A DNA stretch of 32,000 bases from Longimicrobiales bacterium (lineage in GTDB: Bacteria; Gemmatimonadota; Gemmatimonadetes; Longimicrobiales; Gaopeijiaceae), in assembly GCA_965205315.1 (NCBI GenBank), contig CBDBGW010000002.1, positions 440,684-472,683 on the forward strand, written 5' to 3'. The notes beneath the pieces are model-generated. The model saw only the letters and a program-made list of their open reading frames with translations. It was not told where the DNA came from and searched no databases. Each line of letters starts with the position of its first letter. The first letter of the stretch is position 1. This document shows positions 2,200 to 25,208 of this stretch, piece after piece. The translations under genes and the position numbers were made by a program.

Positions 2200-3741
2200 C
2201 TACCGGCCCGCGGTCGGGCGCGCCCACTCCGGCACCACCGCCGGATCGATCTCGAAGACGGCGAGCCCCAAGGCGAAGACCAGCGTTGCGATTACAACCA
2301 CTCCGAAGAGGTTGAGCACGATCCCCGCGCGCGCCATCTCGCCCACCGTGATCCGCCCGCTCCCGAAGACGATTGCGTTGGGCGGGGTGGCCACCGGCAT
2401 CATGAAGGCGCACGACGCCGAGAGGGTTGCCGGGATCATGAGGACGAGGGGGTGCGTCCCGGTCGCCACCGCCACCGATGCGAGGATCGGGAGGATCATC
2501 TCGGTGGTGGCGGTGTTGCTTGTGAATTCGGTCAGGAAGGTGAGCGTCGCGCAGACGATGAGGATCGTCGCGAAGACCGGCAGGCCGCCCAGGACCTCGA
2601 GGCGGCTGCCGGCCAGCTGCGCCAGCCCCGTCTCCTGGAAGCCAGCCGCCAGCGCGAAGCCACCCCCGAAGAGGAGCACGATGTTCCAGGGGAGGCGGGG
2701 GATCACATCCGGCCCGAGGATCCGGGTCGCGCCCCCCTCCCGGTTGCGCGCGGGCACCAGGAAGAGGATCGAGGCGAGGGCGATCGCCACCGTGCCGTCG
2801 TCGATCAGCCCCGGATCGGGGAGCAGACGGGACCAGCCGGGCAACGTGAGGAGGCCCAGCTGCAGGTCGACCCGGAAGACCCAGAGGAGCGCGGTGGCGG
2901 CGAAGACCCAGAGCACGGCGCGTTCCTCGAAGGTGACCGGACCCAGGCGGGCCCGCTCGGCCGCCACCACCTTCCGGTCCACCGCCAGCTCTTCCGGCAC
3001 GCGGTGGAGTACGCGCGTGATAAGCAGCCAGGCGGCGACGAGCATGACCGCGCCCACGGGCAGCGCCATGGCGAGCCACTCCCCGAAGGCGATGGGGGGC
3101 GCCTCGGGGAAGAGGATCTCGAAGATGCGAACGAAGGAGAGGTTGGGCGGGGTCCCCACCAGCGTCGTGATCCCCCCTACGGTGCACCCGTACGCGATCC
3201 CGAGCATGAGCCCCGCCGAGAGGTGTCGCGACCGTTCCCGTCCGGCCCTGCTCTCGATCTGGAGCGCGATTGCCAGCCCGATCGGGACCATCATCACCGC
3301 GGTGGCCGTGTTCGAGATCCACATCGACAGGAAGGCAGCCGCGATCATGAACCCCAGCACGATGCGGGCGGGGCCGCCCCCCACCGCGTGGATGATCCCG
3401 AGCGCGATGCGGCGGTGAAGCCTCCACTTCTCCATGGCGAGCGCGATCATGAACCCGCCGAGGAAGAGCACGACCGTGCTGTTGAAGTAGATCGGCGCGG
3501 TGTCGCGTCCCGCCATGATCCCCAGGAGCGGGTAGAGGGCGAGCGGGAGGAGCGCCGTGGCGAAGAGGGGGATCGCGTCGGTGACCCACCAGATCGCCAT
3601 CAGGAGCGCTACCGCGGCGAGACGGCTGGCGGCCGGGTTGGAGGCGTCGACCGGGAAGAGGAGCAGGAACAGGAAGACGGCGGGGCCCAGCCAGAGGCCG
3701 ATCGTGCGGCTCCGGGAGCTGGCGCGGCGCTCAACGGCCAT
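2200..3741 (-). CDS. SLC13/DASS family anion:sodium symporter (sulfate/di-tricarboxylate type permease)
   Basis: 513-aa polytopic membrane ORF with family-typical segments (AIWWVTDAIPLFATALLPLALYPLLGI, SNTATAVMMVPI, GTPPNLSF, TSNTATTEMILPI, PVATPPNAIVF). The ATG at 3741 overlaps the upstream PLD stop by 11 nt. Confidence 0.85.
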   Translation of the reverse strand: MAVERRASSRSRTIGLWLGPAVFLFLLLFPVDASNPAASRLAAVALLMAIWWVTDAIPLFATALLPLALYPLLGIMAGRDTAPIYFNSTVVLFLGGFMIALAMEKWRLHRRIALGIIHAVGGGPARIVLGFMIAAAFLSMWISNTATAVMMVPIGLAIALQIESRAGRERSRHLSAGLMLGIAYGCTVGGITTLVGTPPNLSFVRIFEILFPEAPPIAFGEWLAMALPVGAVMLVAAWLLITRVLHRVPEELAVDRKVVAAERARLGPVTFEERAVLWVFAATALLWVFRVDLQLGLLTLPGWSRLLPDPGLIDDGTVAIALASILFLVPARNREGGATRILGPDVIPRLPWNIVLLFGGGFALAAGFQETGLAQLAGSRLEVLGGLPVFATILIVCATLTFLTEFTSNTATTEMILPILASVAVATGTHPLVLMIPATLSASCAFMMPVATPPNAIVFGSGRITVGEMARAGIVLNLFGVVVIATLVFALGLAVFEIDPAVVPEWARPTAGR

Positions 3742-4900
3742 GCGGATCCCGCCGAGTAGCCGGGCTCAGCGTCCGCGCCACCAGGGTGGCCGCGCGGATC
3801 TTCGCCCTGGCGATCGTTCGTCCCCAGGCACCGATGGGGTGTCGCCCTGAGACCGGCAGGCGTTGAGAGGCCGCCAGATCCGGCTCCAGCACCTGGCGGC
3901 GAAAGGAGCTGATGACCGCAGCCGACCGGAAGACGGCGACGACCTCGGCCAGGAAGCCGTGGTAGCTCATCAGGTCGAAGTTGGAGGAGCCGGTGATGAG
4001 CGCCCGGTCGTCGATCAGCATGCACTTCATGTGGATCATCCCGCCCCCGTACAGCCAGAGGTGGACGGGGGAGCGCGCGGCCTCGGCGAGGAGGTGCCTC
4101 TGCAGGTACGCCTTGTTGTTGTCGCGCGGGGTGACGAAGTGGACCTCGACCCCGCGATCCGCCGCGGCTGTGAGACGCCCCGTGAAGGGAGGGGACACGT
4201 AGGGGCCGATCATGTGAATCGAGTGCTCTGCCCGGTCGATGATGCCGAGGAGCCCGCCGTAGAGTTCGTGGTTGCCCTTTCCGGGTAGGTTGTGCAGCTC
4301 CAGCTCCAGCTCGGGAAAGGACCTCGACGACGCCTGCGACCGCCCTTCCCAGGAGTGCAGGAAGTCGCCCTTGAGGAAGCGGGTCACCTCAGCGTGCTCG
4401 ATGCGCACCATCAGGTCGTGCCACGCGAAGTTGTGCTCCGAGAAGTTGAGGCCGCCCACGTAGGCCACGCGGTCGTCGAAGAGGACGAGCTTCTTGTGGT
4501 CGCGTCTGAGGATCCTTCCTCCCAGGAGGCCGAGGGGACGCCCAAAGCGCACGCCGATCCCGGCGGCGCTCAGGGTCCGCACGAGGCGCCGGGTGCTGCG
4601 GACCTCGTCGCGGAGCGCGCGGTCGAAGAGGTTGTGCGGCGCCGCAAGCCAGCGGTCGTTGTGGTTGGCGCGGGTGTAGGAGTCGATCAGCAGCCTGATG
4701 TCCGGAGCCCGAGCCGCGAGCAGCTCCTTCGCAAGCTGCTCGCCCACCTGGTCCCCCTCGAAGGAGTAGGTCTGGATGTACACGCAGTCGCGGGCGCTGG
4801 CCAGATCGGCCCGGATCGCGCGCCAGATTGCGGGCGAGTCCACCAGGATCGTGACCCTCGGACGATCTCTCACCGACGGTGGTCGTGTCTCAGAGAGCAC
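3731..4900 (-). CDS. Phospholipase D / cardiolipin-synthase-like protein with two HKD motifs
   Basis: Two HxKxxxxD motifs are present: RDHKKLVLFDDRVAYVGGLNFS and IHMKCMLIDDRALITGSSNFD. The GTG start at 4900 overlaps the dedA-like stop by 11 nt (GTGCTCTCTGA). Confidence 0.85.
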   Translation of the reverse strand: MLSETRPPSVRDRPRVTILVDSPAIWRAIRADLASARDCVYIQTYSFEGDQVGEQLAKELLAARAPDIRLLIDSYTRANHNDRWLAAPHNLFDRALRDEVRSTRRLVRTLSAAGIGVRFGRPLGLLGGRILRRDHKKLVLFDDRVAYVGGLNFSEHNFAWHDLMVRIEHAEVTRFLKGDFLHSWEGRSQASSRSFPELELELHNLPGKGNHELYGGLLGIIDRAEHSIHMIGPYVSPPFTGRLTAAADRGVEVHFVTPRDNNKAYLQRHLLAEAARSPVHLWLYGGGMIHMKCMLIDDRALITGSSNFDLMSYHGFLAEVVAVFRSAAVISSFRRQVLEPDLAASQRLPVSGRHPIGAWGRTIARAKIRAATLVARTLSPATRRDPHGR

Positions 4901-5354
4901 CGTGGATGGCGCTGCCCGCCGCCACCGCCGAATAGCCGATCACGGCGAAGCGCACGCCCCTGCCCACCAGCCCCACGATGATGAACCAGGTGAGGCTCAT
5001 GCGCAGCGCCCCTGCAGCGAGGGAGATGAGGTAGAAGGGCGGGAGACCCACGATGGCGCTGACGAGGACGAGGGTGAATCCCGCCCCTTCGAGCCTCTTC
5101 GTCCTCTGGGAAGCGGCTTCCAGACGCTCCCGAGCCTTCGCCGGGAGTCGTTCCGGGAGCCAACGCGCCCCGGCGTAGAGTCCGACCTTGGCCACAATCT
5201 GCCCGGCCGAGCAGGCGACGATGACCGGCGCGACGAGTGCCGTCGGCGCGGCGACGGCAGCCCCCGCGACAAGCACCTCGGCGTTCACGAAGGGTACCAG
5301 TCCGCTCAGGACGGACATCACGAACGCCGATGTCAGTATTGCGATTTCCGCCAT
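4890..5354 (-). CDS. DedA/YqaA-type (VTT domain) small membrane protein
   Basis: ORF 4890..5402 trimmed to the ATG at 5354 (MAEIAILTSAFVMSVLSGLVPFVNAEVLV...), preceded by AGGGAGAG. About 154 aa with 4 predicted TM segments and an overall YqaA-like layout. Family call is from pattern only. Confidence 0.6.
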   Translation of the reverse strand: MAEIAILTSAFVMSVLSGLVPFVNAEVLVAGAAVAAPTALVAPVIVACSAGQIVAKVGLYAGARWLPERLPAKARERLEAASQRTKRLEGAGFTLVLVSAIVGLPPFYLISLAAGALRMSLTWFIIVGLVGRGVRFAVIGYSAVAAGSAIHGAL

Positions 5355-5430
5355 GGCGTGTCTCTCCCTGGTCCTCGGCCCGCCGGACGCCGCGAACACC
5401 ATACCGGCAAGCCCGCGCCGATGCCACCGC

Positions 5431-5665
5431 TAGCAGCCCGTGGACAGAACTCCCACGGCATTCGAGCGGCGGAGCATCCCCGCTGAACCGCTTCGCTCTG
5501 CGTTGCTCCTCGGACCAATAGCGCTGCGGCTATTGGCCCTTCGTCGCGCCTTGCCAGCGGCGCGCTTCGCCGCTCTCCTTGCTCGCGCGAGTCTGCCCAC
5601 GGACTGCCGCAGCCCGTGGACAGAACTCCCACGGCAGGAGCAGCGCTGCATCCCCGCAGGCCCGT
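5431..5665 (+). repeat. GC-rich intergenic repeat family, copy a (head duplicated)
   Basis: The identical 27-mer CAGCCCGTGGACAGAACTCCCACGGCA occurs at 5434-5460 and 5610-5636; it contains the hairpin CCGTGG-N9-CCACGG. Each copy is followed by a GCATCCCCGC segment. An internal hairpin CCAATAGC-GCTGCG-GCTATTGG lies at 5515-5536. The body matches copies at 12.1 kb and 15.7 kb in inverse orientation. Confidence 0.75.
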
Positions 5666-5688
5666 GTCGCTCAATATGTAATGTGAAG

Positions 5689-5717
5689 ATTACATAATGG
5701 CAACTGTAGTATACATT
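5689..5717 (+). promoter_or_regulatory. Promoter-like box ATTACA-N17-TACATT overlapping the palindrome ATGTAAT-N6-ATTACAT (5676-5695)
   Basis: AT-rich island in otherwise GC-rich DNA, 171 nt upstream of the Rieske oxygenase start. The same TTNACA-N17-TACAYN arrangement recurs at 15797-15825(-), 20453-20481(-) and 23337-23365(+). Confidence 0.45.
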
Positions 5718-5888
5718 CTGTTGCCGCCCCGGTGGCCACGCCCCGTCGTCGAATTACCTTTTCGTACTCCGGGAACCCACAATAGGGGGGTGCTTCCTCA
5801 TGAAGTCCGCAACCTCCGGGCCACTGGGCTGCACGACACACGGGATCGGTCCCGTTTCCGACCTCTTCAAGCACAGAGAGGCGCGTAG

Positions 5889-6962
5889 ATGAGTACTGGC
5901 GTCGATGAACGGTCATCGCACCGTCGCGCAAAGCTCCCCCCGTACCCCGAGGGGTGGTACTTCGTCACCGACCGCAGGACGCTGGCGAAGAGGAAGCTGA
6001 TCGAGAAGAGATGGATGGGCGAGGAGATCGTCGCTTGGGTGGACGGGGAGGGCCGCGTCTGCGTAGCCGGGGCCTACTGCCCGCATCTGGGGTCGCACAT
6101 GGGGCCGACGGTCGGTGGCCTGGTGCGCGACGGCTGCCTGGTATGCCCCTTCCACGGCTTCACCTTCGACACCACCGGCAGGTGTGTCGCCGTGCCGCAC
6201 GCTCCGGCCCCCAGGGCCGCGAAGCTGGAGGTCTACCCCACCCACGAGATCCTCGGCATGGTCTTCGCCTGGTGGGGGAGCGAGGGAAGGGTGCCGCAGT
6301 GGGAGCTGCCCGAGTCGCCTCCCACTGGCGCGGAGTGGGGCGGCCTGCGCTCGACGACGCTGCGATTCAGGGGCCACCCCCAGGAGACTACCGAGAACTC
6401 GGTGGATGTGGAGCACCTGGCGTACACCCACGGGTATCACGACGTGGAGATCACGGCCCCCCTGAAGATCGATGGCGCCTACCTGAAGAGCTGCTTCGAC
6501 TTCAGGTACGTGCACAGGATCGCCGGGGTGTTCAGGGTCGTCGCCGAAGTCTCTGCCGTCACCCACGTCCACGGGCTCGGGTACTCCTTCGTCGAGATCC
6601 ACGAGAAGTCGATCGGCATGGATGCGAGGCTGTGGGTCCTGGCGACGCCGGTGGGTGACACCCAGCTCGAGCTGACGCTCGTCACCCAGGTGCGGGAGAT
6701 CCGCAGGCCGGGCAAGTTCCTCGCAGGACTCGGCTTCCTGCCGGTGCCCTGGCGCCACAGGGTGATGACCCCCTTCTACCTGAGACAGGAGAAGCACTTC
6801 GTCATGCAGGACGTGGTCATCTGGGAGCACAAGCGCTACACCGTCCCGCCCCGGCTCTCCCGCGCAGACGGCCCGATCGGGAAGTTCCGCCTCTACTGCC
6901 GGCAGTTCTACCCCGAGCTGCCGTTGCGGGCTGGGAAGGTGCGGCGAACGGGCACGGCCTGA
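5889..6962 (+). CDS. Rieske [2Fe-2S] non-heme-iron oxygenase, KshA/Neverland(DAF-36)-like
   Basis: Rieske motif CPHLGSH..(17 aa)..CPFHG. Mononuclear iron motif ENSVDVEHLAYTHG (E-N-x2-D-x2-H-x4-H). N-terminal PYPEGWYFV..EIVAW pattern typical of steroid-type Rieske oxygenases. The SD GAGAGG lies 7 nt before the ATG. Confidence 0.8.
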   Translation: MSTGVDERSSHRRAKLPPYPEGWYFVTDRRTLAKRKLIEKRWMGEEIVAWVDGEGRVCVAGAYCPHLGSHMGPTVGGLVRDGCLVCPFHGFTFDTTGRCVAVPHAPAPRAAKLEVYPTHEILGMVFAWWGSEGRVPQWELPESPPTGAEWGGLRSTTLRFRGHPQETTENSVDVEHLAYTHGYHDVEITAPLKIDGAYLKSCFDFRYVHRIAGVFRVVAEVSAVTHVHGLGYSFVEIHEKSIGMDARLWVLATPVGDTQLELTLVTQVREIRRPGKFLAGLGFLPVPWRHRVMTPFYLRQEKHFVMQDVVIWEHKRYTVPPRLSRADGPIGKFRLYCRQFYPELPLRAGKVRRTGTA

Positions 6963-7045
6963 TTTCGCCAACAGTCGCCGCGGAGATGGCCGCACGGGGA
7001 CGAAGTCCGGACGGCATTGGGCACGCTCGTCGTCCACGGACTTCG

Positions 7046-8410
7046 ATGCCCCGCCGCGTTGCCATAGTCGGAGGCGGAATCTCCGGGCTGGGGGCGGCCT
7101 GGGGGCTCAGTCGCCATCCCGACCGCTTCGACTTCGCGCTCTACGAGGCCCAGGACCGGATCGGCGGGAACGCGGTCACCGCCGACATGCCGCAGGACGG
7201 CGGCGGCTCGATCCCCTTCGACATCTCGGTCACCGCCTGCATTCCGTCGGTCTACCACCACATAGTGATTCTCCTGGAGGAGTTCGGGATCGACCTGCTC
7301 GAGACCCGTTTCAGCTACAGCGTGAGGTACCGCGGCCAGCTCTACGCCCACGACTTCGACTCCGAGATCAGGGAGCAGCTTCAGCCCGAGATCGAGCGGT
7401 TCCAGCGGGTCCTGGCGCATCTGCACCGCTTCGGTTGGCTGACGCGCTCCCGCTCGAAGCTCCTGAACGCGCTCAACCCCTTCAACTACGTCAGCATGGG
7501 GACGGTCCTGAATCTGGCTGGGCTCTCCGGGGACTTCAGGTATAAGGTCCTGAAGCCGATGTTCGTCAACTTCCTGATGGCGACCAACGTCTTCGACATG
7601 CCTGCGGCGCTCTTCTCGCGGTACCTCGAGTTCTTCGACATCGAGTCCGCCACCCCGATGCGGACCTGGGACCGGGGAACGAGGCGCATCTACGAGAATC
7701 TCACCGCCGGCTTCCGAGAACGTATCCACCTGGGCCGCCCCGTCCGAAAGGTCTACCGGTACGGCACCCACGTGGTCGTCGAGGACGAGGAGGGGACGCA
7801 GGAGCGCTTCGACGATGTCGTTTTCGCCTGCAACGCCAACCAGACGCTCATGATCCTGGACCGCCCCACCCTGCTGGAGCGCTACATCCTCTCGTCCGTC
7901 CGCTACGAGAGCGAGCTCCACAACCACACCGTCGTCCACTCCGACGCCTCGGTCCTCCCCGACAACGAGGTCAGGCCGCTCGCGACGCGGAGCAATCACA
8001 TCGAGCAGTACGGAGCGCGCCCGGACAACTACGAGATCACCTACATCATGCACAACCAGCAGCCGTGGGTAGGCGATTCGGACAAGCCGTGCCTCGTCAC
8101 CTACAACCCGATCACTCGGATCGACGAGGAGAAGGTGGTCGCGCGACGGTGGTTCCAGCACATCGTCCACGACGTGCGGCAGATGGCGTGGCTCGTCCCC
8201 CTCTTCCGCTTCATCCAGGGTAGGCGGCGGAGCTGGCACTGCGGTGCCCACACCCTTGTGAACAGCCAGGAGACGTGCTTCGTCTCAGGGCTCGCGGCCG
8301 CCACCCAGCTGGGCGCTGACTATCCATTTGACAACGAGGAGGCGCGCCGTACCTTTAACCACTACGGGAGCATCCTGCACGGCTGGCGGTTCAGGAAGGC
8401 GCGGGGTTGA
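7046..8410 (+). CDS. FAD/NAD(P)-binding oxidoreductase (COG2907 / amine-oxidase-like flavoprotein)
   Basis: ORF 6986..8410 trimmed to the ATG at 7046 so that the dinucleotide-binding motif is N-terminal: MPRRVAIVGGGISGLGAAWGLS...YEAQDRIGGN. Start choice is uncertain. Confidence 0.7.
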   Translation: MPRRVAIVGGGISGLGAAWGLSRHPDRFDFALYEAQDRIGGNAVTADMPQDGGGSIPFDISVTACIPSVYHHIVILLEEFGIDLLETRFSYSVRYRGQLYAHDFDSEIREQLQPEIERFQRVLAHLHRFGWLTRSRSKLLNALNPFNYVSMGTVLNLAGLSGDFRYKVLKPMFVNFLMATNVFDMPAALFSRYLEFFDIESATPMRTWDRGTRRIYENLTAGFRERIHLGRPVRKVYRYGTHVVVEDEEGTQERFDDVVFACNANQTLMILDRPTLLERYILSSVRYESELHNHTVVHSDASVLPDNEVRPLATRSNHIEQYGARPDNYEITYIMHNQQPWVGDSDKPCLVTYNPITRIDEEKVVARRWFQHIVHDVRQMAWLVPLFRFIQGRRRSWHCGAHTLVNSQETCFVSGLAAATQLGADYPFDNEEARRTFNHYGSILHGWRFRKARG

Positions 8411-8445
8411 AGGGCGCTTCTATCCGGATCCGGCGATGGCACCTC

Positions 8446-8530
8446 TAGCAGTCCGTGGATAAACTCAGGCGAGCACCGAGAGGGGCGCTGCGCCAGCGGT
8501 CCGTGGACGGGCCCGGACGAGCACCGAGAC
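8446..8530 (+). repeat. GC-rich intergenic repeat family, two tandem degenerate heads
   Basis: TAGCAGTCCGTGGATAAACTCAGGCGAGCACCGAGA is followed by CGGTCCGTGGACGGGCCCGGACGAGCACCGAGA. The first head is about 80% identical to TAGCAGCCCGTGGACAGAACTC at 5431. It lies between convergent genes. Confidence 0.6.
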
Positions 8531-8540
8531 CGGGCATCCT

Positions 8541-9608
8541 TCACAGCCCGGCGGCGGAACGCTTGTTTTCGGGCCGTAGGGGTTTCCGGGCCAGGAAACA
8601 ATACAGCGGCGTGAAGATGCCCGTCCTGCCGCCCGTGACGTACGCCTCCGCGGTTCGATCAAGGAGTCGGACGACCTCTGCCGACCCGTTCGGAAAGAGC
8701 CGCAGCACCTCGGCCAACTTAGACGCCGCGATGAAGGCCTTGCGGCCCCAGGGAAGCCTGCGCACCGCGTTCCCCAATGTCCCGTGGCGACTCTCCATGG
8801 GTTGATACCAGGGCGTGGAGGGTCCTTCCCGGACCTCCCAGTCGCTAGCCTCCACAACTTGGAATCCCGCCCCTTCGAGAGCGCGATTCACCTCCCCGAA
8901 GGTGGCGATTTCGTGCAGCGCAATGCCGCGCATGAGGTCCCGCCTGATGGCCCGGTGCTGGCCGTCCCGCGGATCGAACCGATCCGTCAGGCACATTTCC
9001 TGACCCCAGAACAGGGCACCCGGCTTCAGTACGCGAAATATCTCCGCGAAAGCCCGTTGCTTGTCCTGCGCATGGCACGTCGACTCGATGGCGTAACCCC
9101 TGTCGAAGGAGTCGGCCTCGATGGCGCTCATGTCCGCGAAGCTGCACTTCCTGAGATCGGTCATGTGCTCCAGCCCCGCCTCGGCGTTCAATTTCCTGGC
9201 CTTGGCCAGCTGGATCCCATTGATGTTGATTCCCACGACCCTGACACGCCCCTCACGAACGACACGGCGCATGGGACCGCCGATTCCACAACCGACATCT
9301 ACCACCTTCATGCCCTGTCGCAGCTCCAACCTCGAGATCATCGCCCGCTGGTGCCGGACCTTGGACTCCTCCAGGCTTTCGTTGGGCGTGAGCGGCGCAA
9401 AATGCAGGGATTCACCCCATCCCCACACCATGAATTCGTTGCAAAGCTCGTAGTAGTCCCTGACCGTTTCCGCGTGGTCGTAGGTGCCCGCGCCTGTGCC
9501 CTCCGACACCGCGCGGTCAAGCCAGCCGTCAAAGTGCCGGACTCGACGCGCGACGCCCGATCCCGCGTGCGCATTTCTCAGCGCCTTCGCCAGTTCCACC
9601 AGTCGCAT
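8541..9608 (-). CDS. Sterol C-24 methyltransferase (Erg6/SMT) family SAM-dependent methyltransferase
   Basis: Collinear with yeast Erg6 as recalled. Region I: FMVWGWGESLHFAP (Erg6 FYEYGWGSSFHFS). SAM motif: VVDVGCGIGGP (VLDVGCGVGGP). Region III: YAIESTCHA (YAIEATCHA). Also VLKPGA and C-terminal IFTPLYCFLARKP (LFTPMMLFVARKP). ORF 8541..9809 is trimmed to the ATG at 9608 because the longer form overlaps the P450 gene by 187 nt. The trimmed start lies 14 nt after the P450 stop. Confidence 0.85.
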   Translation of the reverse strand: MRLVELAKALRNAHAGSGVARRVRHFDGWLDRAVSEGTGAGTYDHAETVRDYYELCNEFMVWGWGESLHFAPLTPNESLEESKVRHQRAMISRLELRQGMKVVDVGCGIGGPMRRVVREGRVRVVGININGIQLAKARKLNAEAGLEHMTDLRKCSFADMSAIEADSFDRGYAIESTCHAQDKQRAFAEIFRVLKPGALFWGQEMCLTDRFDPRDGQHRAIRRDLMRGIALHEIATFGEVNRALEGAGFQVVEASDWEVREGPSTPWYQPMESRHGTLGNAVRRLPWGRKAFIAASKLAEVLRLFPNGSAEVVRLLDRTAEAYVTGGRTGIFTPLYCFLARKPLRPENKRSAAGL

Positions 9609-9622
9609 TCTGGTTAGGCCTG

Positions 9623-11701
9623 CTAGGGCAGCTCCCGCCTCTGCTCTACGATGCGAAACCTCAGCTTCTTGCTGGGCTTCAGCGACGGAAACGGATTGAG
9701 TCGGAGCTTCCGGACGTACTTCGCCGGCCACACCTCGATCTTGAAATAGTGCGCCAGCATCAGCAAGTTGACCGCCAGATGCATCTCCATCCACCGGGTG
9801 CCGAGACACCTGTGCGTACCCAGCCCGTACGGGGCGAACCCCATGCTGTGATGCTCACGACGCGATGGCAGGAAGCGGTCGATGTCGAACTTGTAGGGCT
9901 CGGAAAAGACTTCGCTCATATAGTGCGTGGCGGTCATGGCGATGTGGATCCGTTCCCCCACGGGCAGCTCGTAGTTCCCGATCGTGCAGGTATTCATCAC
10001 GTTGCGAACAGACATGGGCACGATCGGGTACATGCGCAGGCATTCCATGAGGAAGCGGTGCGTCACGTCGAGATTGGCGGGGGTCAGGTCCTCCTTCGCG
10101 GGGTCATCCTCGGCAAACAGGGCATCCGCTTCGGACCGGATCCTGTCGTAGAGGGCCGGCTGCGAAGCCATGGCGTAGACCAGGAGGCTGAAAGTGTCGC
10201 CGAGATAAACGCTGGCAATCAGGGCCGCGGAAAAAGAAAAGAGCAGGTTGGACTCCGGGAGAAACTGCGGGTCGCTGGCGTGCAGGCTGAGGTAGTCGTC
10301 CACCAGGTTTCGCGGCCGATTCGCCCGCTGGGCGGGTGTATGGACCCTCAAGACCCGCTCCATCAGCGTGTCCAGGGCAGCTGCCCGGCGTTTCATGCCG
10401 GGGGTATTCAGCGTGAACCTGGGCAGGGTCCTGGCGATGTGCACGCTGAGGGCCCGTTCCTTATAGACCATCAGGTCGTCCATGAGATCCTGCGTGTCGA
10501 CGCCGATGAACAGCGGCGACAGCTGCGCGTTCACCATTGCCCGGCTCATGGACGTGGCGCGGTAGGAATCCCCAACCGTCAGGGTCGACATGTACGCGCG
10601 CCCCCTGTCGTAGAGCTGGTCCAGCTGCCCTGCCAGCCTCGCGCGGGAATAGGACGGCGACAGGAACTTGCGAAGACGGAAGTGGTCGGCCCCGTCCAGG
10701 GCGGGGAGGACACCGGCCGCGCCGTAGACCTTCTCAAAGTCGGCGAAGTAGTCCCTAGTTCTCAGGTACCTGCGGCCACGCTTGTGCACCCATTCATTCG
10801 TCTCGAGTCCGGCCAGGAAGATCATGCGCTCCGAAAAGGGAGGACGGACCTGGAACACCGGGCCGTATTCCTCCGCGAGGTTCCCGAAGAGCGCGTTCAG
10901 GTTGCCGTCTCGGACATGCGGGTTGCGCAGCAGCCTGGAGAGCGGAACCGTGGGGATTTGCTTGGCGAAGGCAGCATGTCCTCGGATCGGGCCGGCGAAG
11001 CTCTCGGAGACCGCATCGGCTATGGACCGGCCGATCAGGTCCAACTGACAGATGAATCCTATGCGCTCCTCCGCCGCTTCATCAAGTTCGAAAATCAAGC
11101 GAAAGACATCGCAGGTGTTGACGAGGCACACGATGACGACGTCTCTCGGCTCGGGAATCTCGTCGGTGAAGATCACGTTGCCGATGCGCGCCTTGACGAA
11201 CTGGTCGTTCGTGCCTTCCTCGGACATCCCGTACCGTTGCCCATGCGTGATAAAGGGAGCCAGCGTCCAGAATTCGCCCTCGTGGTGTTGGAGGATGTTC
11301 CGTTCAACCAGACGCTCCAAAGTCAGGTCGACGATCGACTCCGCGCGGGGGGCGAGCCGTTCGATCCAGTACCGGGCATTGTGTTGGCCTGGTTCGTCCG
11401 CGATCTCCTTCAGGATGGGGTCCAGGACGGGATCGCCCGTTTCGGTCCGGTCCACCACGTACAGGGATGTCAGGTCCGAGTCGAGCCGCGACCGGAAGGA
11501 GAGTTCCGCCAGCACTCCGCCGACGACGGCGCAGTTCAGCCGCCAGCCGGGTACCTGGTGGAAGTACCCTCCCTTCTCGTCGATAAGCATGAGGATGAGC
11601 TCGTCGGTTAGGCTCAGGTACTCGGCCTTCAAGCTCTCCACTGTGTCATTCATCGGTTCGCTCCTTGCCGCGGTCGAGACGCTCATTCCCACCGTATTCA
11701 T
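9623..11701 (-). CDS. Fusion protein: N-terminal GPP34/GOLPH3-like domain (about aa 25-235) plus C-terminal cytochrome P450 (about aa 245-692)
   Basis: GPP34-like part: LTDELILMLIDEKGGYF..LNCAVVGGVLAELSFRSRL..VVDRTETGDPVLDPILKEIAD..ARYWIERLAPRAESIVDLTLERLVERNIL. P450 part: I-helix-like LGDTFS, ExxR (ECLR), PYKFDIDRF, and the heme loop FAPYGLGTHRCLG with Cys632 at nt 9806-9808. It is a single uninterrupted 692-codon ORF. GGAGG lies 3 nt before the ATG at 11701. Confidence 0.8.
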   Translation of the reverse strand: MNTVGMSVSTAARSEPMNDTVESLKAEYLSLTDELILMLIDEKGGYFHQVPGWRLNCAVVGGVLAELSFRSRLDSDLTSLYVVDRTETGDPVLDPILKEIADEPGQHNARYWIERLAPRAESIVDLTLERLVERNILQHHEGEFWTLAPFITHGQRYGMSEEGTNDQFVKARIGNVIFTDEIPEPRDVVIVCLVNTCDVFRLIFELDEAAEERIGFICQLDLIGRSIADAVSESFAGPIRGHAAFAKQIPTVPLSRLLRNPHVRDGNLNALFGNLAEEYGPVFQVRPPFSERMIFLAGLETNEWVHKRGRRYLRTRDYFADFEKVYGAAGVLPALDGADHFRLRKFLSPSYSRARLAGQLDQLYDRGRAYMSTLTVGDSYRATSMSRAMVNAQLSPLFIGVDTQDLMDDLMVYKERALSVHIARTLPRFTLNTPGMKRRAAALDTLMERVLRVHTPAQRANRPRNLVDDYLSLHASDPQFLPESNLLFSFSAALIASVYLGDTFSLLVYAMASQPALYDRIRSEADALFAEDDPAKEDLTPANLDVTHRFLMECLRMYPIVPMSVRNVMNTCTIGNYELPVGERIHIAMTATHYMSEVFSEPYKFDIDRFLPSRREHHSMGFAPYGLGTHRCLGTRWMEMHLAVNLLMLAHYFKIEVWPAKYVRKLRLNPFPSLKPSKKLRFRIVEQRRELP

Positions 11702-11759
11702 GAACCTCCGGGCCGAAGGTCATTTGCTTGACCAAAATTGAGGGGCCGAAAGACCTCCC

Positions 11760-12146
11760 GCAACCCCCAAGGGCGTTCGCGAGGCGACTGGGGGCGGTAC
11801 GGTCGTGGAAAAAGCGGCGATTCGAGTCCGGGGGAAGTAGTTTGTCGGTGCCCGGAGACGCCTCGGCATCGTTTCGGCGCCGGTGCTCGGGGAAGCGGTA
11901 GGCGCGGCGATGCGCCCGCGCCAGCCAGACGCCGTGCAGGGTCGCGAGTCCGCGCGAGCATGTGCCGGTGCGCCGAAGCGCCTACGGCGGTCATCGTGAT
12001 CCGGTGCCCGGAGACGGTGAACCGCGCTGCGGTGCGAAGGAAGCGTTCGCGGCGCGCCCGAAGCCCCAGCCGGGCCCGGTTATGCGCTCCAGCACGGATG
12101 CAGCGCCCCTCGAATGCCGTCACGGTTGCTTCCACGGGCTACTAGG
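11760..12146 (-). repeat. GC-rich intergenic repeat family, copy c (expanded), filling the RND-P450 intergenic gap
   Basis: The reverse complement of 12085-12146 reads CTAGTAGCCCGTGGAAGCAACCGTGACGGCATTCGAGGGGCGCTGCATCCGTGCTGG. This is about 80% identical over ~60 nt to 5430-5490. Further body matches exist (GGCGCTTCGGCGC...TGCTCGCGCGGACTC versus 5560-5595). No credible ORF lies in this region. Confidence 0.6.
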
Positions 12147-12153
12147 GCGGGGG

Positions 12154-15100
12154 CTATCCGGCGCTCGCGGTCGAAGGACGCCGTGACGGCGTCAGGTGCA
12201 GATGTAACGCGCATAGCGCCGGAACAACCATCATGAGTATAGCCGTGGTGAAGATGATGCCACAACCGAGCGACGCGGCGAACGGTATCAGGAACTGGGC
12301 CTGAATGGCGCGCTCCAGGATCAGCGGCGTGAAGCCTAGGAACGTGGTCAGGGAAGTGAGCATGATCGGACGAAAGCGCCCCTTGGCACCCTCGACGATC
12401 GCGGTTCTCGGCGGGACGCCTTCCCTGAGTTTCTGATCGATGAAATCGATCATGACCAGGGAGTCGTTCACCACCACACCGCTGAGACCGAAGATCCCCA
12501 TGAAGGAAATGGCGCTTAGCGCTACTCCCAGGATCCAGTGGCCCAGGATCACGCCGATGAACCCGAAGGGGATCACGGCCATGATGATGAACGGCTTGGT
12601 GTATGAACGGAGAGGGATGGCGAGGAGCGCAAAGATCAGGATCAGGGCGATCACGAACCCGCGCTTCAGGGCGTCGATGGACTCCAGTTGTTGCTGCTGT
12701 TCGCCCCCGAAGGTGTATGTTAGGTCCGGGTGCTCCGCCGTCAGATCCGCAAGGATCGAACCGGCCAGAATCTCGTTGGCTTCGTCGCCCGAGATCACCG
12801 AGGCGTCCACGTCGGCGGTGACTGTGACGACGCGGTGGCCGTCCCTGCGCCGCAGCGCAGACGGCGACACGCCCATGCCCAGCGAGGCCACACCGATGAT
12901 CGGCACCTTGTCCCCGCCCGGCGTACGGAGCAGGTAGCCTTCGATATCGGTGATCGAGTTCCGCTCTTCCGTGGGCAGCCGAACATAGGCTCGTACCTCT
13001 TCGCGGCCGCGCTGCACCCGGACGGCCTCTGCGCCGAAGAACGCGGCTCTCGCCTGTCCGGCCAGATCTTGCACGGTGAGGCCGAGGGTCCTTGCTTCGG
13101 GCCGCAACTCCAGCTGAACTTCCGGGATGCCCGGGACATGATCCGACCGTATGTCGTAGACGCCTCCCAACCTGCGGAGTCCGTCGACCACCGAGTCGGC
13201 GATCAGGGCGAGGCGCTCGGGGTCCGGATGGGACAGTACGGCCTCGACCGGATTCCCCAGGGTGAAGATCTCGCCGCTGAAGGTGATGCCGCGCACATAC
13301 GGCGGCACACCCACCTCCTCCCGCCACGCCTGCACGACCTCTCCGGTGGAGATCCGTCTCTGCTGCGCAGCGAGGAGTTTGAATTCGATGGTGGCGATAT
13401 TGGCCTGCGGATTGAGGGTGGGCTGCGGGTTGAGTCCGCCTTCGATTCTCGATCCCAGCCCCACGGTCACCGTGACACCCGCCAGCAGCGGTGGCGCGTC
13501 TTCAGGCCGGCTGCGAGAGAGTCGTTCGATGACCCGGCGGCCCGCAGCCTCCAGCTCCCGCGCCACTTCGTACGTTCTCTGAGCGGTGGTCCCGTCGGGC
13601 ATCTCCAGCACGGCCGTCGCGAGATCACCCTCCACATCGTCGGCCAGCGTGATGGGGACGATTCCCGCAGGCAACAGGGAGATGCTCAGCACGAGCATTC
13701 CGACGGCCCCCGACATCGTCACCCCGGGCCGGGCCGTGGCAAACCGCAGGGCCCGGTCCAGGGGCCCCTGCACGAACCGCTGCAACTGGAGATCGACACG
13801 ACTCTGGAGTCCCGAAAAGAACCGGTCGAAGGCACTGCCCGGCACCCACTCCGGACCGGGCAGGTGGGACAGGTGGTTGGGCAGGACAAACAGCGACTCC
13901 ACCAACGAAACCAGCAGCATGGCGATTATGATGATCGGCAGAGCCCGCCATACGTCACCGACGCCGCCCGGGATGAACAGCAACGGGACGAAGGCCACCG
14001 CCGAAGTAAGGACTGCGAACGTCAACGGCACCTTGATCCGCCGGACGCCGCGTATCGCGGCCGCGACCCCGGGGGTTCCGCGACTGCGTTCGCTTTGAAT
14101 GCACTCGCCTACCACTATGGCGTCGTCAACGATGATCCCGATGGCGAGGACAAAGGAGAAGAGGCTGATGGTGTTGATCGCCATGTCGAGTGCCATCATG
14201 ACGGCGAGGGCGCCCAGGCCCGAAACGGCGAGGCCCACGGCAACCCACAGGGCAAGCCGCACCTGAAGAAACAGGCTGAGGGCGACCAACACCAGCAACA
14301 GACCCAGAATCCCGTTCTTCAGAAGGAGATCGGCGCGTTCCTTGTAGGCCTGGGATTCGTCGTTCCAGATGGTGATGCCGACCCCGTCGGGTAGGGCCGG
14401 GATCACCTCGTTCGCCAGGTGCTCGCTAACCGTCGTAGCCACATCCATCACCTGCTCGCCACCGGCCCTGTAGACCTCGACGAATACGGCGGGCTGGTTC
14501 TGGTGACGGACTATGAGGTCTGACTCCTGGAACCCGTCGCGCACCTCGGCGATGTCGCCGAGGCGCACCAGCGTGCCGTCGCGGCCGCTGAGAAGGACGA
14601 TCTCCTCGAAGTCCTGCTGGTCGTAGTTCTGTCCGAGCGTACGCACTCGAACCTGGGACTGCCGGGTATCGATGCTGCCGGCGGACAGGTCGAGCGAACT
14701 GCGGCGGATCGCGCCCGCAACGTCGGTAAGCGTGAGTCCCAGGGCACTCAGCCGGTGAAGCGGCACCTCGATGGAGATCTCGTAGTTCCGCACCCCGCTG
14801 ACCTCGACCTGGGAGACGGAGGGCAACGCGGTAAGGTCGTCCTCGATCCGGTGCGCCAGTTCCTTCAGCGACCGCTCGGAGATGTCGCCGTGGACGATGA
14901 GCCGAATCATGCTGAAGCGGTTGTCCATCTCGTGGAACCGGGGTCGTTCGGCACCGGCCGGAAAGGACTGGACACGATTGACGGCGGATTCTATGTCGTC
15001 CAATGCCCGATCCATGTCCGTACGGGAATCCATCTGGACCCGCACGGAGGCTATGCCCGGAGCCGCTACGGACTTGACCGCCTTGACGTCATCGAGCCCG

Positions 15101-15360
15101 CTGACCTGGTCCTCGATCTTGACGACGATCGACTCCTCGATCTCCTCCGGCGTGGCCCCGGGATAGGCCATCGAGACTTCGATGTGGTAGAAGGGGGTGA
15201 TGGGCCAGGCTTCCCGCTCGAGGCCGGTCAGGGACAGGAGTCCGGCCGCAACGATGCCCACCATCAGGAGATTGGCCGCAATGCCATTGTCGGCCATATA
15301 GGCGAGCGGGCCGGACCGCTCGCGGCGGTCACCCGGTTCGGGACCCCCGTCGGGATTCAT
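12154..15360 (-). CDS. AcrB/HAE-type RND efflux transporter permease
   Basis: 1068-aa ORF with RND architecture: an N-terminal TM (IAANLLMVGIVAAGLLSL), two large periplasmic loops and two 5-6 TM bundles (e.g. FSFVLAIGIIVDDAIVVGE, GLSGVVVNDSLVMIDF). The ATG at 15358-15360 overlaps the stop of the upstream remnant ORF (ATGA). Confidence 0.9.
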   Translation of the reverse strand: MNPDGGPEPGDRRERSGPLAYMADNGIAANLLMVGIVAAGLLSLTGLEREAWPITPFYHIEVSMAYPGATPEEIEESIVVKIEDQVSGLDDVKAVKSVAAPGIASVRVQMDSRTDMDRALDDIESAVNRVQSFPAGAERPRFHEMDNRFSMIRLIVHGDISERSLKELAHRIEDDLTALPSVSQVEVSGVRNYEISIEVPLHRLSALGLTLTDVAGAIRRSSLDLSAGSIDTRQSQVRVRTLGQNYDQQDFEEIVLLSGRDGTLVRLGDIAEVRDGFQESDLIVRHQNQPAVFVEVYRAGGEQVMDVATTVSEHLANEVIPALPDGVGITIWNDESQAYKERADLLLKNGILGLLLVLVALSLFLQVRLALWVAVGLAVSGLGALAVMMALDMAINTISLFSFVLAIGIIVDDAIVVGECIQSERSRGTPGVAAAIRGVRRIKVPLTFAVLTSAVAFVPLLFIPGGVGDVWRALPIIIIAMLLVSLVESLFVLPNHLSHLPGPEWVPGSAFDRFFSGLQSRVDLQLQRFVQGPLDRALRFATARPGVTMSGAVGMLVLSISLLPAGIVPITLADDVEGDLATAVLEMPDGTTAQRTYEVARELEAAGRRVIERLSRSRPEDAPPLLAGVTVTVGLGSRIEGGLNPQPTLNPQANIATIEFKLLAAQQRRISTGEVVQAWREEVGVPPYVRGITFSGEIFTLGNPVEAVLSHPDPERLALIADSVVDGLRRLGGVYDIRSDHVPGIPEVQLELRPEARTLGLTVQDLAGQARAAFFGAEAVRVQRGREEVRAYVRLPTEERNSITDIEGYLLRTPGGDKVPIIGVASLGMGVSPSALRRRDGHRVVTVTADVDASVISGDEANEILAGSILADLTAEHPDLTYTFGGEQQQQLESIDALKRGFVIALILIFALLAIPLRSYTKPFIIMAVIPFGFIGVILGHWILGVALSAISFMGIFGLSGVVVNDSLVMIDFIDQKLREGVPPRTAIVEGAKGRFRPIMLTSLTTFLGFTPLILERAIQAQFLIPFAASLGCGIIFTTAILMMVVPALCALHLHLTPSRRPSTASAG

Positions 15361-15659: not shown

Positions 15660-15699
15660 TCGATTGTGGCGGGACCGACATCTGGCGTCAACCTAACCG

Positions 15700-15796
15700 A
15701 GAGCGGTGAGGTGCCGGGCTGGCAAGGCGCGACGAAAGGGGAGGAGCGGGGCTATTTGCCCGAGGAGCAACGCAGAGCGAAGCGTGGGAGCCACCG
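15700..15796 (-). repeat. GC-rich intergenic repeat family, copy d (body only, inverted relative to copy a)
   Basis: The reverse complement reads CCCACGCTTCGCTCTGCGTTGCTCCTCGGGCAAATAGCC...CCTTTCGTCGCGCCTTGCCAGC. It matches 5452-5560 (CGCTTCGCTCTGCGTTGCTCCTCGGACCAATAGC...CCCTTCGTCGCGCCTTGCCAGC). Confidence 0.7.
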
Positions 15797-15825
15797 AATG
15801 TATACTGCGCTTGACATAATGTAAC
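15797..15825 (-). promoter_or_regulatory. Promoter-like box GTTACA-N17-TACATT (minus strand) facing the adaptor remnant and RND gene; palindrome ATGTAA-N8-TTACAT at 15819-15838
   Basis: On the minus strand this reads GTTACAttatgtcaagcgcagtaTACATT, closely similar to ATTACAtaatggcaactgtagtaTACATT at 5689. The plus strand also reads TTGACA-N17-TACATC (15811-15839), but no plus-strand gene lies downstream. Confidence 0.4.
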
Positions 15826-16024
15826 GTTGTCTTTACATCGAGAAACGATGAAGCGGAGTGGCCAGCCTGGAGGCATCGCCGCTCGAATGGCGGGGGGTCG
15901 TCTTGTCCGCGGGCCGCCGGCGGGAGGGGTGGGAAGCCCGCCGGGAGGTCGCGCTATGGACTCCCAGTGCGGGGGGCGGTGTGGGAGGTCAGCTCGCGCA
16001 CGGCGAGTCGTCCGATAAGGGGCT

Positions 16025-20452: not shown

Positions 20453-20481
20453 TGTGTAAAGATTACATTACAAAATGTAAA
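20453..20481 (-). promoter_or_regulatory. Promoter-like box TTTACA-N17-TACACA (minus strand), 36 nt upstream of the S9 peptidase start; palindrome ATGTAA-N8-TTACAT at 20475-20494
   Basis: AT-rich island GTGTAAAGATTACATTACAAAATGTAAACCGTAGATTACATGTG, carrying several TGTAA/TTACA half sites. Confidence 0.45.
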
Positions 20482-20510
20482 CCGTAGATTACATGTGACA
20501 GAGGTACCCG

Positions 20511-23301: not shown

Positions 23302-23336
23302 CCAGCAACCCAGGAGCTGGATTCAGTAAACTACGG

Positions 23337-23365
23337 TTTACAAAACGTAATTTCCGCTTTACATA
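23337..23365 (+). promoter_or_regulatory. Promoter-like box TTTACA-N17-TACATA, 25 nt upstream of the lipoprotein gene
   Basis: AT-rich island GTAAACTACGGTTTACAAAACGTAATTTCCGCTTTACATAG, followed by the SD AGGAGGG 6 nt before the ATG at 23391. Confidence 0.45.
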
Positions 23366-24675: not shown

Positions 24676-24836
24676 CCGCAGATCGGGTCGGCCTTCTGCG
24701 ACCGCTGGGGGGGTGGCGGAACTGAGGCTCTTCGGGTCGGTGCTGCGCGACGACTTCGGGCCCGACAGCGACGTCGACGTTCTCGTCCGATTCTAGGCGG
24801 GGCGGACGGTGGGGCTGTTCGCAGCCGCCACTCCCG
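24676..24836 (+). pseudogene. Decayed MNT-type nucleotidyltransferase (HEPN-MNT antitoxin-like) gene
   Basis: One frame reads PQIGSAFCDRWG up to a G7 run (24707-24713). The next frame continues VAELRLFGSVLRDDFGPDSDVDVLVRF, the minimal nucleotidyltransferase GS..D.D motif. An in-frame TAG follows at 24794-24796, then AGRTVGLF. The gene is cut off where the higA duplication begins (24829). No HEPN partner is present. Confidence 0.6.
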
Positions 24837-25196
24837 TCAGCTGGCTGGCACGCCGCGAGGCTCGATCTCGCGTTCGATCTCCCGCCGCGCCGGTTCGGCG
24901 TCGTCTAGGTCATACTGGACCTGGAGGCCGATCCAGAATTCGGGCGTCGTGCCGAAATAGTGCGCGAGACGAAGCGCGGTGTCCGTGCTGATGCAGCGCC
25001 TGCCTCGGACGATGTCGTTGACACGCGGCCAAGGTATCCGCAGCGCCTGGGCGAGCCGGTAGACGCTCAGTCCCAAGGGTCGCAGGAAGTCGTCCCGCAG
25101 GATCTCGCCGGGATGAACCGGGGGAAGGTGGCCGGGGGCGGCCACATCCGAGAAGTCCACGGCCCTCTGGACCACATCGTGCCGGCTGATGGTCAT
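24837..25196 (-). CDS. higA: HigA-family antitoxin (XRE helix-turn-helix), copy 1, orphan
   Basis: VHPGEILRDDFLRPLGLSVYRLAQALRIPWPRVNDIVRGRRCISTDTALRLAHYFGTTPEFWIGLQ is the canonical HigA/VapI HTH pattern. By eye there are 9 differences in 119 aa versus copy 2. Confidence 0.85.
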   Translation of the reverse strand: MTISRHDVVQRAVDFSDVAAPGHLPPVHPGEILRDDFLRPLGLSVYRLAQALRIPWPRVNDIVRGRRCISTDTALRLAHYFGTTPEFWIGLQVQYDLDDAEPARREIEREIEPRGVPAS

Positions 25197-25208
25197 CCGT
25201 CACCTCGT

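Follow-up and report, generated by a model that had tools for sequence, protein, structure and literature searches.

A stretch of 32,000 nucleotides from the genome of a Longimicrobiales bacterium (Gemmatimonadota; NCBI GenBank assembly GCA_965205315.1, contig CBDBGW010000002.1, positions 440,684 to 472,683 of the forward strand; called the window here, with positions counted from its first letter) carries a cassette of five genes. These encode a KshA-like Rieske oxygenase, an LkcE-like flavoprotein, a divergent enzyme of the sterol methyltransferase (SMT) family, a fusion of a GPP34 domain to a cytochrome P450, and an RND permease. Comparison with other genomes showed the five genes to be a conserved unit that moves horizontally and is confined to bacteria associated with sponges or corals. 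Our reading, to which we give a probability of about 60%, is that this mobile module modifies a sterol and transports it through the cell envelope.

The plus strand encodes the Rieske nonheme-iron oxygenase (357 amino acids [aa]; 5889 to 6962), which matches the Pfam models Rieske (58.5 bits) and KshA_C (75.5 bits), and, after a gap of 23 nucleotides (nt), the FAD-dependent protein of the amine oxidase family (474 aa; 6986 to 8410; Amino_oxidase, 58 bits, and NAD_binding_8), an accessory member of the cassette. On the minus strand, the GPP34-P450 fusion (692 aa; 9623 to 11701) consists of an N-terminal GPP34 domain (residues 31 to 233, approximately 11003 to 11611; 98.4 bits) and a C-terminal P450 domain (residues 258 to 666, approximately 9704 to 10930; 122.9 bits) and is separated by 14 nt from the methyltransferase gene (355 aa; 8541 to 9608), whose product matches CMAS (63.8 bits) and Sterol_MT_C (PF08498; 56.3 bits, gathering score 21.7). 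The two pairs converge on a spacer of 130 nt. The fifth gene, also on the minus strand, encodes the AcrB/HAE1-like RND permease (1068 aa; 12154 to 15360; ACR_tran, 522 bits). The GC content of the window is about 67%, and the coding frame with high GC at third codon positions (GC3) is the frame of all four open reading frames (ORFs) between 5889 and 11701. The longest ORF of the methyltransferase (422 aa) starts from a GTG at 9809 and would overlap the P450 gene; orthologs begin at the methionine of MRLVELAKAL, and the start at 9608 is supported by this match to their N termini. An earlier reading of the window, made from the sequence only, had described the first four of these genes. Its ORFs, its convergent layout, and the motifs that it quoted are all present in the sequence (CPHLGSH, CPFHG, and ENSVDVEHLAYTH in the Rieske protein; WGWGESLHF, VDVGCGIGGP, YAIESTCHA, and FTPLYCFLARKP in the methyltransferase), and its four family assignments hold in Pfam. 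Its right-hand limit at 11701 was too tight, as the conserved unit includes the permease gene; it left the partner domain of the P450 unrecognized, which is GPP34, a published marker of sponge symbiosis (PMC11706023); and it missed the transporter, the restriction to sponge symbionts, and the horizontal spread. A scan of the four proteins that it had described against NCBIfam equivalog models placed none above its cutoff.

The conservation of the cassette was assessed in one genome per GTDB species, which gave 80 loci with a methyltransferase 70 to 97% identical to that of the window. Neighbors were counted in the 65 loci with about 10 kb of sequence on both sides (referred to as fully flanked), with orthologs found by tblastn using the window proteins. 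Relatives of the methyltransferase at 70% identity or more occur in at least 11 phyla, and the loci belong to Gemmatimonadota (including several Candidatus Palauibacter species), Acidobacteriota, Latescibacterota, Nitrospirales, Nitrospinota, Dehalococcoidia/Chloroflexota, Binatia, Rhodothermales, Opitutales, Gammaproteobacteria, and Actinomycetes. A GPP34 gene stands beside the methyltransferase gene in all 65 fully flanked loci, a KshA-like Rieske gene does so in 59, and 57 have a gene for an RND-superfamily transporter nearby; orthologs of the flavoprotein (62 to 83% identical) were present in 31 of 65. Methyltransferase, GPP34, Rieske, and RND genes were found jointly in 54 of the 65, a recurrence across many phyla that is more than chance. 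The sequence-only reading had staked itself on its four genes being neighbors in related genomes, and this they are, across phyla.

Three observations together point to horizontal spread of the five-gene cassette. The genes that flank it, unlike its own members, are not kept between loci in the tblastn comparison. The window methyltransferase is 85 to 88% identical to copies from Acidobacteriota and 76 to 79% identical to several copies from Gemmatimonadota. The GC content falls to 0.61 to 0.64 over 9 to 13 kb, where the methyltransferase, P450, and RND genes lie, compared to 0.65 to 0.70 in the flanks, and the GC3 of the methyltransferase gene is 0.71 compared to 0.81 to 0.94 in its neighbors. 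The low GC3 and the GC dip (9001 to 13000) would also be consistent with a fairly recent acquisition. The closest locus (L001) belongs to the Gemmatimonadetes metagenome-assembled genome (MAG) COS4_bin_2, which has 96 to 98% protein identity and shares the phospholipase D (PLD)-like, VTT, and transporter flanks. The genes for the PLD-like protein, of the cardiolipin synthase type, and for the VTT/DedA membrane protein (3731 to 5402, minus strand) lie directly upstream of the cassette; both are lipid related and are conserved only in this same-species locus.

The association with sponges was supported when 241 million metagenome records of the JGI were scanned, as 63 of 63 matches lay on contigs with sponge-metagenome names; the source was confirmed for the prefixes LXNI, LXNJ, JGIcombinedJ30088, and Ga0209021. 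The same scan with P0121, a methyltransferase 57% identical to that of the window, returned no close relatives and only members of the same methyltransferase family, in sponge metagenomes. Many further loci of the survey bear MAG names derived from sponges or corals; the letters COS in COS4_bin_2 may stand for the sponge Coscinoderma, in which Palauibacterales are frequent. The window fusion has the features of GPP34_L, as one ORF of a sponge-symbiont genome begins with a GPP34 domain and ends with a P450. The published frequency of GPP34_L among Gemmatimonadota is 92.6% in sponge symbionts and zero in free-living members, and the same study described it as monophyletic, exclusive to sponge symbionts, and expressed in situ in Aplysina aerophoba (PMC11706023).

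The link to sterols comes from the Nitrospirales, in which the cassette adjoins genes for SMO-OSC (OSC, oxidosqualene cyclase), CYP51, ERG24, SdmA, SdmB, and a canonical SMT; the same holds for an unclassified "bacterium" MAG (L063). A 1146-aa SMO-OSC fusion adjoins the cassette in L032, L033, L037, and L044, and a fragment of it does so in L063. The 70,077-bp Nitrospirales contig at locus L048 is the one called "Nitrospira sp., coral reef" by Brown et al. (PMC10070321); we identify the two because the identities of Erg6 to L048:10001-11035 (35.63%) and L048:4636-5670 (38.81%) equal the published values for IMG 2682229270 ("2 of 2") and 2682229274 ("1 of 2"), respectively. Its genes run in the order CYP51, ERG24, SdmA, SdmB, and SMT1, followed by the flavoprotein, an outer-membrane β-barrel protein, the KshA-like Rieske protein, SMT2, and GPP34-P450. 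The window methyltransferase is a direct ortholog of "2 of 2" (73% identical), and four of the window's five genes have their counterparts beside a sterol cluster, whereas the window itself lacks the biosynthetic genes and has an AcrB-type RND permease instead. Rieske, P450, and GPP34 neighbors are not mentioned in PMC10070321. An FA_hydroxylase gene stands next to the cassette in some loci of Nitrospirales and unclassified MAGs, and an ERG4/ERG24-family gene lies 5 kb away in the Longimicrobiales locus L005. Clusters of ERG24, CYP51, and LSS have been described in sponge-associated Gemmatimonadota, among ten phyla (Kelly et al., PMC9531527). These clusters of Ircinia symbionts resemble the cassette in their restriction to sponge symbionts, their horizontal transfer, and their overlapping range of phyla, Gemmatimonadota included, but they encode core biosynthesis, whereas the cassette encodes tailoring and transport and has no gene in common with them. 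The proposal of the sequence-only reading that this is a candidate sterol-modifying cassette is thus strengthened in its link to sterols. An ordinary C-24 role for the methyltransferase was not supported, nor, among the roles that it named for Rieske oxygenases of this type, that of the C-4 demethylase component (SdmA).

We hypothesize that the substrate of the cassette is a sterol, which would be self-made where an OSC cluster adjoins, as in the Nitrospirales, and which elsewhere might be obtained from the host or from its community. Oxidation or desaturation of this sterol would fall to the KshA-like Rieske oxygenase and to the P450 with its GPP34 tether; the divergent SMT-family enzyme would methylate it with S-adenosylmethionine (SAM), using a side-chain pocket remodeled at M81, W83, L89, and I249; the LkcE-like flavoprotein, where present, would desaturate or reduce the product; and the RND pump would export it toward the outer membrane or the host. 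Given its remodeled pocket, the methyltransferase might accept an olefin or an enol outside the range of canonical C-24 SMTs, or it might act only after the oxygenase steps. A sterol substrate is supported by the Sterol_MT_C domain of the methyltransferase, by KshA and CYP51 as the nearest relatives of the Rieske protein and the P450, and by the sterol-sensing domains of the RND transporters found in other lineages. A parallel by enzyme class rather than by sequence may be drawn with Caenorhabditis elegans, which handles exogenous sterols using DAF-36 (a Rieske 7-desaturase), DAF-9 (a P450), and STRM-1 (an SMT-family C-4 methyltransferase) (PMC6385002). There the genes are eukaryotic and unclustered, but the same three classes of enzyme act together on a sterol for which the organism needs no synthesis of its own, and STRM-1 illustrates that methylation by an SMT-family enzyme can take place on the ring instead of at C-24.

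Several points weigh against this reading. The activities of the cassette enzymes are putative, being assigned by sequence, fold, and context. A tblastn search of the 32-kb window with Nitrospirales proteins found no OSC, squalene epoxidase, CYP51, ERG24, or SdmAB, in agreement with the earlier remark that the window holds neither a cyclase nor a squalene epoxidase. Canonical sterol genes lie within 10 kb in only 12 of the 65 fully flanked loci, and among the OSC matches listed (at least 72% identity), a link to methyltransferase loci was seen only on Nitrospirales chromosomes. There is no reductase or ferredoxin gene within the cassette, and the AcrB-type permease of the window has no adjoining genes for a membrane fusion protein (MFP) or an outer-membrane efflux protein (OEP). 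More divergent members of the methyltransferase family (58 to 70% identical) are sometimes orphans amid housekeeping genes. Finally, the apparent inactivity of the Nitrospira ortholog on two Δ24 sterols, taken up below, is equally compatible with a non-sterol substrate.

The methyltransferase was compared with its homologs by a HMMER search of 1.84 billion cluster representatives, which yielded 242 proteins at E ≤ 1e-30, and a neighbor-joining tree was built from 116 near-full-length sequences (Poisson distance, 338 columns, 300 bootstraps; midpoint rooted, with no Cfa or UbiE outgroup). The window family, together with P0121, P0123, and P0126, split from all SMTs that carry Y81 and F89, Erg6 and the Nitrospira protein "1 of 2" included, in 300 of 300 bootstraps. 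Identity to Erg6 is 33% and to the functional Nitrospira "1 of 2" 43%. Region I reads M81-V-W-GWGESL89HF in the window protein and does not match the canonical Y81-E-[YFW]-GWGxxF89HF; M81 and L89 are invariant in all 118 family members, which carry S or N at position 78, mostly W at 83, and I or V at 249. The SAM motif DxGxGxxGP and the catalytic residues are present (D125, G127, G129, G132, P133, H90, and E195) and are likewise invariant in the 118 members, with the exception of G132 (G in 97, A in 20). Brown and Welander (bioRxiv 10.64898/2025.12.19.695621) listed 25 residues, T78 and F89 among them, that are conserved in all SMTs functional in assays, of which the window protein keeps 23, and in their docking the side chain of the sterol lies no more than 5 Å from residues 81 and 249. 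These comparisons showed the protein to be an SMT-family enzyme of a distinct clade, called here the L89 clade, with an altered substrate pocket. The call of an Erg6-like SMT made from the sequence alone was right as to family, and the tree placed the protein outside the clade of Erg6 and the functional SMTs. Assignment to Cfa, UbiE, or another small-molecule methyltransferase was rejected, since those models score lower, below their cutoffs, and the C-terminal domain is specific to SMTs. The PDB holds no SMT detectable by sequence. The pairing with GPP34-P450 is kept in the deepest member of the clade, P0126 (40% identity), and P0123 is an orphan. A TonB-dependent receptor gene (L145:13509-16490) adjoins the pair of P0126 and hints at uptake of a substrate there. 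The 477-aa cluster representative P0069, a methyltransferase with a KshA_C Pfam match, is either a Rieske-SMT fusion or a product of gene-calling read-through.

Judged by its residues and its place in the tree, the window protein is not an ordinary Erg6-type C-24 SMT. The corresponding alternative, in which the enzyme alkylates a Δ24 sterol at C-24 and its partners perform ring steps such as C-4 demethylation and C-7 desaturation, is one that we consider unlikely but worth serious attention. The protein is collinear with Erg6, the residues that it shares with functional SMTs include H90, E195, and the SAM motif, and it has the Sterol_MT_C domain. Moreover, the published assays, which in 2023 covered 24 proteins with "Nitrospira 2 of 2" among them (Brown et al., PMC10070321), used two substrates only, and the authors themselves remark that SMTs found inactive may require a different sterol. 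Set against this are the 100% bootstrap split and the change of both M81 and L89 without exception. The ortholog itself carries S78, L89, N189, and M341, which differ from the published conserved set and thus place it outside the "functional" SMTs; from this we infer that it is apparently inactive on desmosterol and 24-methylenecholesterol, which the papers do not state. The Nitrospirales also possess a canonical functional SMT besides, and the Rieske protein fails the SdmA model.

A more specific form of the sterol-tailoring reading is that the L89-clade enzyme methylates a position other than C-24 on a sterol prepared by the GPP34-P450 and the Rieske oxygenase, with the RND pump delivering the product to the host. 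We offer this as a speculation that is unlikely to be right. Candidate sites are C-26 of (epi)codisterol supplied by a co-resident canonical SMT, or the ring, as with STRM-1. If it were true, some "sponge-specific" unconventional sterols and the sterane fossils derived from them would be products of bacterial symbionts, and the role of GPP34_L would be sterol remodeling and not binding of phosphatidylinositol 4-phosphate (PI4P).

The type of RND transporter differs among lineages. Orthologs of the window permease, 63 to 98% identical (mostly 81 to 98%), lie directly upstream of GPP34-P450 in 42 of the 80 genome loci; these AcrB-type proteins occur in Gemmatimonadota, Acidobacteriota, Latescibacterota, and Opitutales, and in Latescibacterota and some unclassified MAGs genes for an MFP and an outer-membrane factor precede the RND gene. 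Nitrospirales, Dehalococcoidia, and Binatia instead have HAE3-type RND proteins that contain sterol-sensing or Patched domains, and genes for a 246-aa TPR protein and an outer-membrane β-barrel protein often go with them. These HAE3-type proteins are HpnN/BstA-like and score better on HpnN models than on BstA. The window permease was rejected as a BstA/HpnN lipid transporter: it scores 24 bits on HpnN against a cutoff of 1100, has no BstA match, and is HAE1-like; on the NCBIfam model RND_permease_2 it scores 404 bits, below the cutoff. It resembles BstABC and HpnN in being an RND-superfamily transporter genetically linked to polycyclic-lipid genes and differs from them in being an HAE1/AcrB-like pump. 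The multidrug type of this pump raises the alternative of a detoxification system, in which host terpenoids or other lipophilic sponge metabolites are modified and then expelled. A P450, a Rieske oxygenase, a methyltransferase, and a pump would make a plausible xenobiotic set, and in most loci the 10 kb on either side hold no genes of sterol synthesis. We nevertheless judge this explanation quite improbable, as the nearest relatives of three of the enzymes (SMT, KshA, and CYP51) act on sterols or steroids, the cassette directly adjoins OSC clusters, and other lineages use RND proteins with sterol-sensing domains.

The role that we read for the GPP34-P450 fusion differs from the one proposed for GPP34_L in PMC11706023, where it is taken to be a secreted, PI4P-binding effector and where neither "sterol" nor "methyltransferase" appears in the text. 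The window protein shares the two-domain architecture and the host-restricted, multi-phylum distribution of GPP34_L; unlike the effector envisaged there, it is encoded in one operon with an SMT-family enzyme, and its pocket arginines are unconserved. The PI4P pocket of human GOLPH3 comprises W81, R90, R171, and R174 (human numbering). Fifty cassette GPP34 domains were aligned to GOLPH3 (sequence checked against a phmmer alignment to 9qpq), and in all 50 W81 is kept, R90 is replaced by V, A, or I, R171 by E or D, and R174 by I, V, or L, in an alignment of low identity with a gap near residues 171 to 174, which counts against what we draw from it. The phmmer alignment likewise shows V in place of R90. 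The lost arginines and the 14-nt junction to the gene of a cytoplasmic methyltransferase argue against a PI4P effector role for this form, and we infer that the GPP34 domain is a lipid- or membrane-binding module serving the P450. In the effector hypothesis, the secreted fusion binds PI4P and blocks phagosome maturation in sponge cells, and its gene neighbors are unrelated to it; exclusivity to sponge symbionts, expression in situ, and the retained W81 speak for it. A very low probability seems appropriate to us, given that the gene is co-transcribed with that of a SAM-dependent methyltransferase, that Rieske and RND genes share its neighborhood in 54 of 65 loci, that a P450 depends on haem and on electrons supplied in the cytoplasm, and that no hydrophobic N-terminal signal sequence was evident on inspection by eye only. 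As for the P450 domain itself, its best solved relative is CYP51 (E 1e-16, 64 bits). It was not accepted as a CYP51 ortholog, since the score is only 64 bits, the Nitrospirales loci encode a canonical CYP51 separately, and there is no NCBIfam pass; canonical CYP51 aligns to the cassette-type P450 gene in two JGI loci only, at 20 to 24% identity.

The nearest solved relative of the flavoprotein is LkcE, which it matches over its full length (E 1e-29); at its N terminus it also weakly matches models of HpnE, CrtD, and protoporphyrinogen oxidase. In furan fatty acid synthesis, UfaM, a SAM-dependent lipid C-methylase, is paired with UfaD, an NAD/FAD-binding desaturase with a preference for the methyl-branched alkene that results (PMC7380195). 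This precedent, which is one of enzyme classes and not of sequence and in which the substrate is an acyl chain, offers a possible logic for the pair of SMT and flavoprotein and suggests that the flavoprotein may act after methylation. The matches to HpnE and CrtD bear on a further alternative, that the substrate is another polycyclic or isoprenoid lipid such as a hopanoid, a tetrahymanol-like compound, a carotenoid, or squalene. SMT-family enzymes methylate squalene and botryococcene, and Botryococcus has SMT-like triterpene methyltransferases; the preference of the HAE3 transporters of other loci for HpnN over BstA models points the same way. On the other side, no squalene-hopene cyclase or carotenoid genes lie beside any cassette, and the adjoining cyclase, where present, is the SMO-OSC fusion together with CYP51, ERG24, and SdmAB; we think this substrate class very unlikely.

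The nearest solved sequence to the Rieske protein is KshA (E 4e-21). An AlphaFold2 model (pLDDT 81.6, pTM 0.83) had KshA structures as all of its top six Foldseek matches in the PDB (TM 0.74 to 0.77, 20 to 24% identity), and the residues of its Rieske cluster (CxH...CxxH) and nonheme-iron motif, C64, H66, C86, H89, D173, H176, and H181, are invariant in 60 orthologs. The protein was rejected as SdmA, as it scores only 42.9 bits on NF052579 against a cutoff of 600, over its N-terminal half only; a genuine SdmA (Rieske and VanA_C) is encoded by a separate gene in L048. It shares the Rieske and KshA_C domains with the KshA/KshB 3-ketosteroid 9α-hydroxylase, its best match in sequence and fold (TM 0.77); it is only 23 to 24% identical, and its context is biosynthetic rather than catabolic, with no KshB-type reductase, ferredoxin, or steroid-catabolic genes in the window or among the conserved neighbors. 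Actinobacterial steroid catabolism starts with oxygenase, flavoprotein, and P450 steps. A start of host-sterol breakdown by a KshA-like 9α-hydroxylase, a KstD-like flavin dehydrogenase, and a CYP125-like side-chain oxidase, which the match to KshA and the resemblance of the three enzymes to these first steps might suggest, is the least credible account of all, because a SAM-dependent C-methyltransferase is out of place in it, an export-type RND is unsuited to it, no KshB, KstD (FAD_binding_2 type), Hsa, or β-oxidation genes lie nearby, and the neighbors in Nitrospirales are biosynthetic.

Bacterial SMTs in sponge symbionts, the sterol clusters of symbionts with their transfer, and the GPP34-P450 fusion are already published. 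In the searchable literature, we found no paper that joins the SMT, GPP34-P450, and Rieske genes into one cassette or GPP34_L to sterol genes. Two lines of work each hold one piece: the SMT paralog of symbiont sterol clusters, apparently silent in assays, belongs to biomarker geochemistry, and the GPP34-P450 fusion, which marks symbionts of about 17 phyla, belongs to sponge microbiome research. The two are operon partners, and the mobile cassette that holds them also encodes a steroid-type Rieske oxygenase, a flavoprotein, and a pump. The sterol-tailoring reading of the cassette thus offers an alternative to the phagocytosis-effector hypothesis and allows both open questions to be tested together, and it bears on which organisms make unconventional sponge sterols and hence on how sponge sterane biomarkers are read.

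The intergenic regions of the cassette are rich in repeats. Hairpin repeats resembling repetitive extragenic palindromic (REP) elements, with a TGTAA-N8-TTACA palindrome at 5677 to 5694, occupy 5430 to 5731 upstream of the Rieske gene, and a matching region at 15699 to 15896, with the palindrome at 15820 to 15837, lies upstream of the RND gene. The two regions share inverted-repeat elements of about 300 bp, the arms of the second being 73 to 90% complementary to 5452 to 5731. REP-like repeats also occur in the convergent spacer between the flavoprotein and methyltransferase genes (8447 to 8529; direct repeat D3 and inverted repeat I3) and between the RND and GPP34-P450 genes (12084 to 12145; I1, 62 nt, 76%), where they lengthen the spacer to 452 nt from the tens of nucleotides seen in most other loci. 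Such hairpin repeats fill every intergenic region of the cassette, as with GCAGCCCGTGGACAGAACTCCCACGGCA, which has two exact copies 176 nt apart. The 18-bp AT-rich palindrome has seven copies in the window against 0.01 expected (5677 to 5694, 15820 to 15837, 20455 to 20493, 23325 to 23363, and 31973 to 31990, twice as pairs 21 bp apart), all of them intergenic and upstream of transcription units (Rieske, RND, S9 peptidase, and Big_2 protein), and in two Longimicrobiales relatives (L002:15389 and L005:13640) it immediately precedes the Rieske gene. We take it for a probable operator or promoter element specific to the lineage, and its presence upstream of cassette genes suggests that an acquired cassette was wired into a regulon of the host. 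Terminal inverted repeats carried by the cassette, or a transposon, were considered and rejected, as repeats of the same types occur inside the cassette and the palindrome occurs upstream of unrelated genes and at the relatives' own promoters; we read the cassette repeats as REP or operator elements of the host genome. A scan of the window for sigma-70 promoters and terminators gave no excess over chance, and tRNA and Rfam scans found nothing.

A few further features of the loci may be recorded. A gene for a GH116/DUF608-like glycoside hydrolase (about 800 to 900 aa) adjoins the cassette in about nine loci, among them the Gemmatimonadota loci L006, L010, L019, L021, L024, L026, and L031. GH116 enzymes include glucosylceramidases, and some also act on steryl glucosides. 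Within the window, a duplication of about 420 bp (24831 to 25252 and 26302 to 26724; 93 to 96% identity, offset by 1471 bp) covers two small minus-strand ORFs of 121 and 149 aa. A protein with Schlafen AlbA_2, HATPase_c_4, and TPR domains is encoded at 27530 to 29716 on the minus strand; an AlbA_2 and HATPase_c_4 protein is also encoded about 1.3 kb upstream of an "orphan" SMT gene in two sponge-metagenome loci (L130:6903-8654 and L134:6955-8706), which may be coincidence. Just beyond the start of the window gene for this protein, the 17-nt unit GGGGGCCTCCTAGAGAC is present in four tandem copies at 29809 to 29893.

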